The notes beneath the pieces were generated by a model. The model saw nothing but the letters and a program-made list of their open reading frames with translations. It was not told the DNA's origin and searched no databases. From the NCBI GenBank assembly GCA_964551545.1, contig CAZKCT010000005.1:456-64455 (forward strand): a DNA stretch of 64,000 nucleotides, in the 5' to 3' direction. Shown piece after piece: positions 8,209 through 8,337 of the stretch; the stretch's first letter is position 1; the number at the start of each line of letters is the position of its first letter. This DNA comes from an uncultured Piscirickettsiaceae bacterium. GTDB taxonomy: Bacteria > Pseudomonadota > Gammaproteobacteria > GCF-002020875. A program made the position numbers and the translations under genes.

Positions 8209-8337
8209 CTCACGCAAAGCCGCCAAGAACAGCTATCAAATAGAACAATGAACAAAACTCAGTACATCACTCCAAAATATAGCAATAGAAAAAGCCATAC
8301 GCTTTCATCCTTTGCGTCTTTGCGCCTTTGCGTGAGA
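8209..8337. repeat. Gene-less copy of the IR-flanked element (same ends as 594-1024) between ccmB and ccmC
   Basis: Left end CTCACGCAAAGCCGC (8209-8223) and right end CCTTTGCGTCTTTGCGCCTTTGCGTGAGA (8309-8337, identical to 997-1024); internal 84 bp A-rich, no ORF. Confidence 0.55.

Follow-up and report, generated by a model that had tools for sequence, protein, structure and literature searches.

The closest described counterpart of the element reported here is the REP/REPIN-RAYT system, in which short intergenic palindromes, paired in inverted orientation as hairpins, occur in many gene-less copies per genome, the same repeats flank a small nuclease gene, lineage-specific repeat variants are cognate to the local gene, and no target-site duplication is made. 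All of these features recur in the palindrome family described below, the gene-bearing members of which encode a GxxExxY protein. The two systems differ in their parts. GxxExxY proteins are PD-(D/E)XK nucleases of the Cas4/RecB-like type, whereas RAYTs are IS200/IS605-like HUH/Y1 tyrosine transposases. The arms of the present family are stacks of octamers with a (T)CTCA/TGAG cap, whereas the known REP superfamilies have a GTAG or CGTC head, and the octamer-arm motif does not figure in the survey of REP superfamilies (PMC3733652). Moreover, the same arm sequence recurs across ~13 phyla.

Other small elements share some of these properties. MITEs such as the Correia elements of Neisseria are small, end in terminal inverted repeats, are inserted between the genes of operons and are co-transcribed as a stem-loop; unlike them, the octamer-arm family shows no target-site duplication and no related IS with a DDE transposase, and most of its members are palindromic throughout. 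PD-(D/E)XK homing endonucleases exist, for example I-Ssp6803I. Homing genes of this type resemble the GxxExxY cassette in that a small gene for an oligomeric PD-(D/E)XK protein occupies the centre of a symmetric site and is patchily distributed among relatives. In contrast to them, the GxxExxY family has many dispersed, target-like palindromes per genome, and its gene is long-lived under purifying selection and has no intron or intein context. Rpn/YhgA-like (PDDEXK_2) nucleases are also PD-(D/E)XK enzymes present in multiple copies with transposase-like annotation, but they form another Pfam family of larger proteins, and we know of no tie between them and flanking palindromes. Finally, the intervening sequences of 23S rRNA genes in Leptospira and Coxiella hold a small ORF within an inverted-repeat stem and are mobile and patchy. 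Their ORFs encode four-helix-bundle S23p/Avd-like proteins and not GxxExxY. An intervening sequence of this kind was rejected for the element studied here, given its place between ccmB and ccmC; none of about 280 octamer-arm loci showed an rRNA signature.

When clustered at 50% identity, the GxxExxY family itself comprises about 19,900 clusters (matches at E up to 1e-3), and its function is given as 'Unknown' (PMC3424549). It is a very large, strongly conserved family without an assigned function. A search of the full-text literature, which covered neither subscription journals nor database notes, so that an earlier mention is possible, returned no published account of an association between GxxExxY genes and the arms described here. 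We lean, by a little, towards reading positions 8199–8347 as an old, non-autonomous, gene-less member of a palindrome family organised like REPIN/RAYT, with a Cas4/RecB-like PD-(D/E)XK nuclease as partner.

Results and discussion

Two inverted-repeat elements of one family in the window

The window (the whole stretch analysed, 64,000 nucleotides of DNA from an uncultured Piscirickettsiaceae bacterium) contains two inverted-repeat structures with arms of about 29 nt. The gene-less one, delimited by its fold and inverted repeat at 8199–8347 (no strand assigned), has no counterpart in relatives L209, L213 and L214. Its outer stem, TAACAGCGG...CCTGCTTTTA, is specific to this lineage and takes in the ccmB stop codon (8199–8201; gene at 7515–8201, + strand), and the first downstream gene, ccmC fused to ccmD (8376–9590, + strand), begins 28 nt beyond the end of the stem. 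The left arm (8209–8228, + strand) is degenerate and consists of CTCA and two octamer units (CGCAAAGC CGCCAAGA); the right arm (8310–8337, + strand) consists of three octamer units followed by TGAGA and is identical to positions 997–1024. The interior between them (8229–8309, no strand) is A-rich, is not palindromic and holds no ORF. The gene-bearing element lies between cbbQ and cbbO at 585–1033 (no strand), with its left arm at 595–613 and its right arm at 997–1024, and the sequence TAACAGCRG is common to the left flanks of both elements. Metagenome assemblies made independently from this organism place both elements identically, so that neither is an assembly artefact.

An earlier reading of the sequence alone had noticed that the two loci share an identical 28-nt right end and a closely matching left end. 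Both ends were confirmed: the 28-mer CTTTGCGTCTTTGCGCCTTTGCGTGAGA has exactly two copies in the window, at 997–1024 and 8310–8337 (0 matches in shuffles), and CTCACGCAAAGSCGC was found on the + strand at 595 and 8209 and on the − strand at 1009–1023 and 8322–8336 (4 matches observed vs 0.33 expected). The inverted repeats are real and extend further than had been noted, pairing 8206–8228 with 8317–8339 (23 nt each, 87% complementary) in the ccm element and 585–613 with 1005–1033 (86% complementary) in the cassette. The filler between the ends was rightly described as A-rich (48% A), although its length is 86 nt and not 84. Arms with at least two CRCNRAG units at 8-nt spacing, a CTCA/TGAG cap and inverted arrangement were present in both elements, at 8213–8227 (left) and 8310–8332 (right) in the ccm element and at 599–613 (left) and 997–1019 (right) in the cassette. 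The proposal that the ccm element is related to the GxxExxY cassette but lacks its gene is thus upheld by the common arm architecture and by a right arm identical over 28 nt to the cassette arm 7.3 kb away.

Two features of the surrounding ccm genes were observed in passing. The fused ccmC-ccmD reading frame is a single ORF of 404 aa, with Pfam matches to Cytochrom_C_asm at residues 16–186 and to CcmD at 361–401; the linker of ~170 aa has no match, and the fusion is shared by relatives (402–420 aa). At ccmA, which encodes an ABC ATPase (6859–7518, + strand), the public annotation of this contig (L001, L002) gives instead an antisense ORF of 185 aa (6901–7458, − strand) with no Pfam match; relatives call an ABC_tran gene here, and the antisense call is probably a gene-calling error.

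The gene of the cassette (614–994, + strand) starts with TTG and encodes a GxxExxY protein of 126 aa (PF13366, E = 2e-42; TIGR04256, E = 1e-42), a PD-(D/E)XK nuclease related to Cas4 and RecB. The best PDB structural match of its AlphaFold2 model (pLDDT 94) was Cas4 SSO0001, followed by lambda-exonuclease-like enzymes and tRNA-splicing endonucleases; a PDB sequence search returned no solved relative, and PADLOC gave weak Cas4-like matches only and PHROGs none. The invariant residues D68, E78, K80, Q92 and Y96 make up the motifs D...ExK and QxxxY, which are those of nucleases of the RecB family. Between the lineages of the relatives dN was ~0.15 with dS saturated (>1), dN/dS being far below 1, which places the nuclease under purifying selection. 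Natural proteins of ~275 aa contain two tandem GxxExxY domains (P0249, P0250, P0251 and others), and these sequences suggest that the single-domain protein acts as a dimer.

The arms track the GxxExxY gene and stay complementary

So that loci were chosen only by their protein, metagenomes were scanned with an alignment of GxxExxY sequences, which yielded 80 loci, 69 of them with enough flanking sequence; loci were examined as 8-kb stretches. An arm was found within 130 nt of the GxxExxY gene in 64 of the 69 loci, against a background of 0.27 arms per kb, which demonstrates that arms and gene are tightly associated across phyla. In general form an arm consists of the cap (T)CTCA and 2–4 octamer units, CTCA(CGCAAAGN)n, and the opposite arm is its reverse complement. 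The octamers vary among loci (CGCAAAG, CGCCAAG, CACAAAG, CGCAGAG, CACGGAG and others), while the two arms of one locus match: the median inverted-repeat score between upstream and downstream flanks was 15, compared with 7 in shuffles and 8 in cross-locus pairings.

When 33 gene-flanking arm pairs were aligned in fixed register, 84.6% of the cells paired, and changes on both sides were found in 104 cells, as against 36 in shuffles (0/500 reached the observed value) and 16–26 with slid partners. These counts show that a change in one arm tends to be compensated in the other, so that the pair remains complementary, a covariation that is expected equally under a selected RNA stem. The same correspondence extends to hairpins without a gene, whose arms scored 0.62 against the gene arms of their own locus and 0.45 against those of other loci (p = 8e-9); gene-less hairpins carry the arm variant of the neighbouring GxxExxY gene. 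That gene-less hairpins form multi-copy families, as had been supposed from the window, was borne out at such loci, where they were seen beside GxxExxY genes.

The gene was always located at the centre of the palindrome, whichever the orientation of the arms. The order left arm-gene-right arm was found in 21 loci and the reverse order in 7, and genes between two complete hairpins were found as well. Occurrence of both orders is not predicted by a simple terminal-inverted-repeat transposon and counts against our favoured reading as a REPIN/RAYT-like family. One locus, L099, retains a decayed gene copy, with residues 1–31 and 57–84 left between intact arms, and this half-deleted copy establishes that decay from a full to an empty element does occur.

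Several loci showed unusual arrangements. Arrays were very dense in L206 and L187; in L206 (1–5220) two GxxExxY cassettes and ~seven gene-less hairpins occupy 5 kb, at about one per intergenic spacer, the spacers belonging to a histidine-kinase/response-regulator cluster. The same insertion at a histidine-kinase/response-regulator junction was present in L167, L187 and L206, with arm variants that differ and are compensated. Cargo between arms consisted mostly of ordinary genes that happen to have a separate hairpin on either side, the exceptions being a KGK-domain ORF (L087) and a GIY-YIG ORF of 141 aa (L149, 2460–2974; PF01541, 22.9 bits, cut-off 22.6). The latter lies between a left and a right arm directly downstream of a GxxExxY cassette and would represent a second kind of nuclease cargo.

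The arm motif is spread across bacterial phyla

The sequence-only reading missed the scale of the family, which reaches well beyond a local one. The motif CTCACGCAAAGSCGCHAAG was searched for on both strands in one genome per species (596 Gb) and was found in at least 120 genomic stretches, where ~26 were expected by chance according to our own estimate. Among the matches listed, ~13 phyla were represented, with Acidobacteriota, Planctomycetota, Cyanobacteriota, Bacteroidota, Chloroflexota, Verrucomicrobiota, Desulfobacterota, Nitrospirota, Nitrospinota, Gemmatimonadota, NC10, Leptospira and alpha- and gammaproteobacteria as carriers; cultured carriers among them were Nostoc, Anabaena, Dolichospermum and Sphingomonas.

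Most family members among the matches listed are gene-less hairpins of 50–150 nt. From these matches 69 arm pairs were recovered, 52 of them with a total length of up to 150 nt and three of the size of a GxxExxY gene, and the gene itself was found in 5 of the 120 loci only. Typical gene-less elements are single hairpins, palindromic to the tip, with ~75% of bases paired and loops of 3–13 nt, unlike the ccm element, the interior of which is not palindromic. They occupy intergenic spacers, including those within operons, and are depleted inside long ORFs, which cover 42% of hairpin bases vs 82% of the background. Some genomes hold multi-copy sets of gene-less elements with related interiors, and in some loci the arrangement is opposite, with the loop on the TGAG/CTCA side.

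Three further observations concern the distribution of arms. In Dolichospermum sp. FACHB-1091 (L060, 5513–5940) six arms of the same orientation follow one another in tandem with an exact period of 81 nt and form no hairpin. In the flanks of L018 and L056 the hairpins are nested in a further, lineage-specific outer palindrome, GATCACAGAT...GAATCGTGATC, which resembles the outer stem AACAGCGG...CCGCTTTT of the window's lineage. Among virus-labelled contigs of IMG/VR (L217–L281) the arm motif was present in 65 stretches, with 28 short hairpins and one contig bearing five copies, and no GxxExxY gene was detected in ~600 kb of these motif-bearing stretches. The contigs may be a vehicle of transfer between phyla or may be misclassified bacterial DNA; hairpins without the gene on them count against the REPIN/RAYT-like reading.

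Gain, loss and age of the ccm element

Relatives of the window's organism, which are close to Candidatus Thiopontia (one being Candidatus Thiopontia autotrophica by its UniRef name), were fetched through their CcmB homologues. The window carries the hairpin between ccmB and ccmC and the cassette between cbbQ and cbbO, and so does L207/L208, with the hairpin at the same position. In L209/L210 the cassette is present and ccmB and ccmC are separated by 14 nt without arms. L213 has neither element, with 14 nt between ccmB and ccmC and a 26-nt spacer between cbbQ and cbbO, both without arms. In L214 and L215, where the cbbQ-cbbO region is outside the stretch, the ccm spacer measures 17 nt and 57 nt, respectively, without arms. 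The ccm element is thus an insertion, as had been proposed, close relatives having an armless spacer of 14–17 nt. In a tree of seven relatives the window and L215, and L209 and L213, were sisters with 100% bootstrap each; the presence of filled and empty sites among sisters indicates that both elements have come and gone cleanly within the time span of this clade. L207 was not placed by this tree, so that a single gain followed by losses is indistinguishable from other scenarios.

The copy is old, since it is common to the window and to L207, a lineage at saturated dS. Between these two hairpins the arms were kept while the interiors diverged beyond alignment, and the arms differ by a compensatory pair (CTCACGC...GCGTGAG in the window, CTCGCGC...GCGCGAG in L207). 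On this sequence comparison the arms of the ccm copy appear to be actively maintained. The right arms of hairpin and cassette, identical in the window, differ at 4 positions in the corresponding pair of L207, and we therefore do not propose concerted evolution of the two copies. The earlier suggestion that the family is active in this genome is unsupported: the 64-kb window holds one gene-less copy, and that copy is an old one found at the same position in L207.

An account that we consider unlikely, although it deserves weighing, takes the gene-less palindrome as the target of a free-standing GxxExxY homing endonuclease, which would cut it when empty, the gene being copied into its centre by repair, so that the ccm hairpin would be an unoccupied target and would not descend from the cassette. 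The invariably central position of the gene in either arm orientation fits such a site, as do the symmetric dimer suggested by the fused two-domain forms, the GIY-YIG gene inside the arms of L149 and the precedent of I-Ssp6803I. Homing, however, leaves the spread of palindromes into new spacers unexplained. The cassette has persisted at a single locus, inherited stably and kept by purifying selection, unlike the usual cycle of gain, decay and loss, and the ccm hairpin, 7 kb from a resident nuclease, has stayed unoccupied since before the lineages of the window and L207 diverged.

Transcript-level function and mode of mobility

The location in operon spacers raises a reading at the RNA level, in which the transcribed stem-loop would process, stabilise or attenuate ccm mRNA, as an RNase III site or a barrier to 3' exonucleases, in the manner of REP and Correia sequences. 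The sense strand is predicted to fold into a stable stem spanning 8199–8347 (−40.8 kcal/mol, z = −4.9), and arms that are conserved and compensated around a drifting interior would suit such a role. The antisense strand, however, folds better (−60.7 kcal/mol), and mismatches in the gene-flanking arms showed no sense-strand excess of G:U (71 vs 85), which weakly favours a constraint at the level of DNA rather than RNA. It had also been suggested that the element may supply promoter- or terminator-like structure to the operon. A scan of the ccm element for either gave nothing above shuffles; as an intrinsic terminator the element offered only a sub-stem of 7 pairs and a weak T-run at 8319–8346, and the count of terminator-like structures did not exceed that of shuffles. 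No relevant match was obtained in an Rfam 15 scan of 400–8600 (E up to 10). Close relatives manage with a 14-nt spacer, and a single motif in ~13 phyla is hard to ascribe to host RNA processing alone. We regard a primary role in ccm mRNA metabolism as improbable.

Still less probable is a classical MITE, which would have arisen recently from the cassette by internal deletion, would move by cut-and-paste transposition and would be active at present. The ccm element is small and non-coding and has terminal inverted repeats with ends common to the cassette, which is the part of the original MITE-like description that stands. The rest of that description is not supported: no direct repeat beyond the palindromic T...A was found around 37 hairpins, no clear target-site duplication emerged from the comparison of filled with empty sites, and the partner is a PD-(D/E)XK nuclease, which is not a known transposase. 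Derivation from the cassette by deletion is a possible route, as the intermediate in L099 illustrates, but local alignment of the DNA, tblastn and comparison with shuffles revealed no significant resemblance between the interior of this copy and the GxxExxY gene. A weak signal of such a fragment in the copy of L207 (p about 0.03–0.04, uncorrected for ~12 tests) was taken as non-significant, and a gene remnant there was rejected. The age of the copy and its single occurrence in 64 kb speak against current activity, and typical members are palindromic to the tip, a form that internal deletion does not yield.

Chance resemblance or convergence of simple sequence, with no biological unit behind it, might be suspected from the low complexity of octamer repeats but is refuted by the absence of matches in shuffles, the specific tie to one protein family and the strong covariation.

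A REPIN/RAYT-like interpretation

Returning to the REPIN/RAYT-like reading, the autonomous-looking form would be the palindrome with a GxxExxY nuclease gene of about 125 aa at its centre, of which 585–1033 is the window's copy. We infer that the arms, with their two-fold symmetry, or else the DNA hairpin or cruciform that they form, are the recognition site of the nuclease, which probably works as a dimer, and that it may act in trans, copying, converting or maintaining hairpins that lack the gene, as a RAYT does for REP/REPIN. The ccmB/ccmC copy would then have inserted long ago, with arms that are still maintained and an interior that has drifted. Effects on the ccm operon, where the mRNA gains a stable stem-loop and ccmB and ccmC lose their close spacing, would be a tolerated side effect and not the element's raison d'être; the consequence for the operon is probably modest. 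Besides the two arm orders and the virus-labelled contigs mentioned above, this reading has against it the lack of a target-site duplication or defined cut site among the 37 hairpins and the single gene-less copy of the window with its non-palindromic interior.

A broader proposal, which we hold tentatively and at somewhat less than even confidence, is that GxxExxY genes and octamer-arm palindromes together may form an unrecognised class of selfish DNA across bacterial phyla, in which a minimal nuclease takes the role of the RAYT, reads the 8-nt arrays or the hairpin, and spreads or homogenises hairpins. Nuclease and hairpin as a cognate pair constitute a testable hypothesis and would be a second, independent solution to the REP/RAYT lifestyle. 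If true, it would reveal a new way in which DNA is moved and maintained, and would assign a function to a family of roughly 20,000 clusters. At a practical level, the element family explains odd 'fillers' in operons, such as those of cbbQ/cbbO and ccmB/ccmC, flags likely assembly breaks and gene miscalls, and can serve as a presence/absence marker among closely related uncultured sulfur oxidisers.

Other repeats in the window

Three further repeats were recorded. A 50-nt direct repeat (19628–19677 and 22911–22960, 74% identical), which ends in TTTTTTGTAAsCGAATGTAACA, may represent a regulatory site common to the two genes that follow it. A 240-nt direct repeat with 70% identity, the copies of which (17429–17668 and 61617–61856) are 44 kb apart, is probably paralogous coding sequence. 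At 55591–55646 lies an AT-rich, overlapping palindrome of 33 nt (TACCACAATATTAGTATTAATGCCAATATATTG...).
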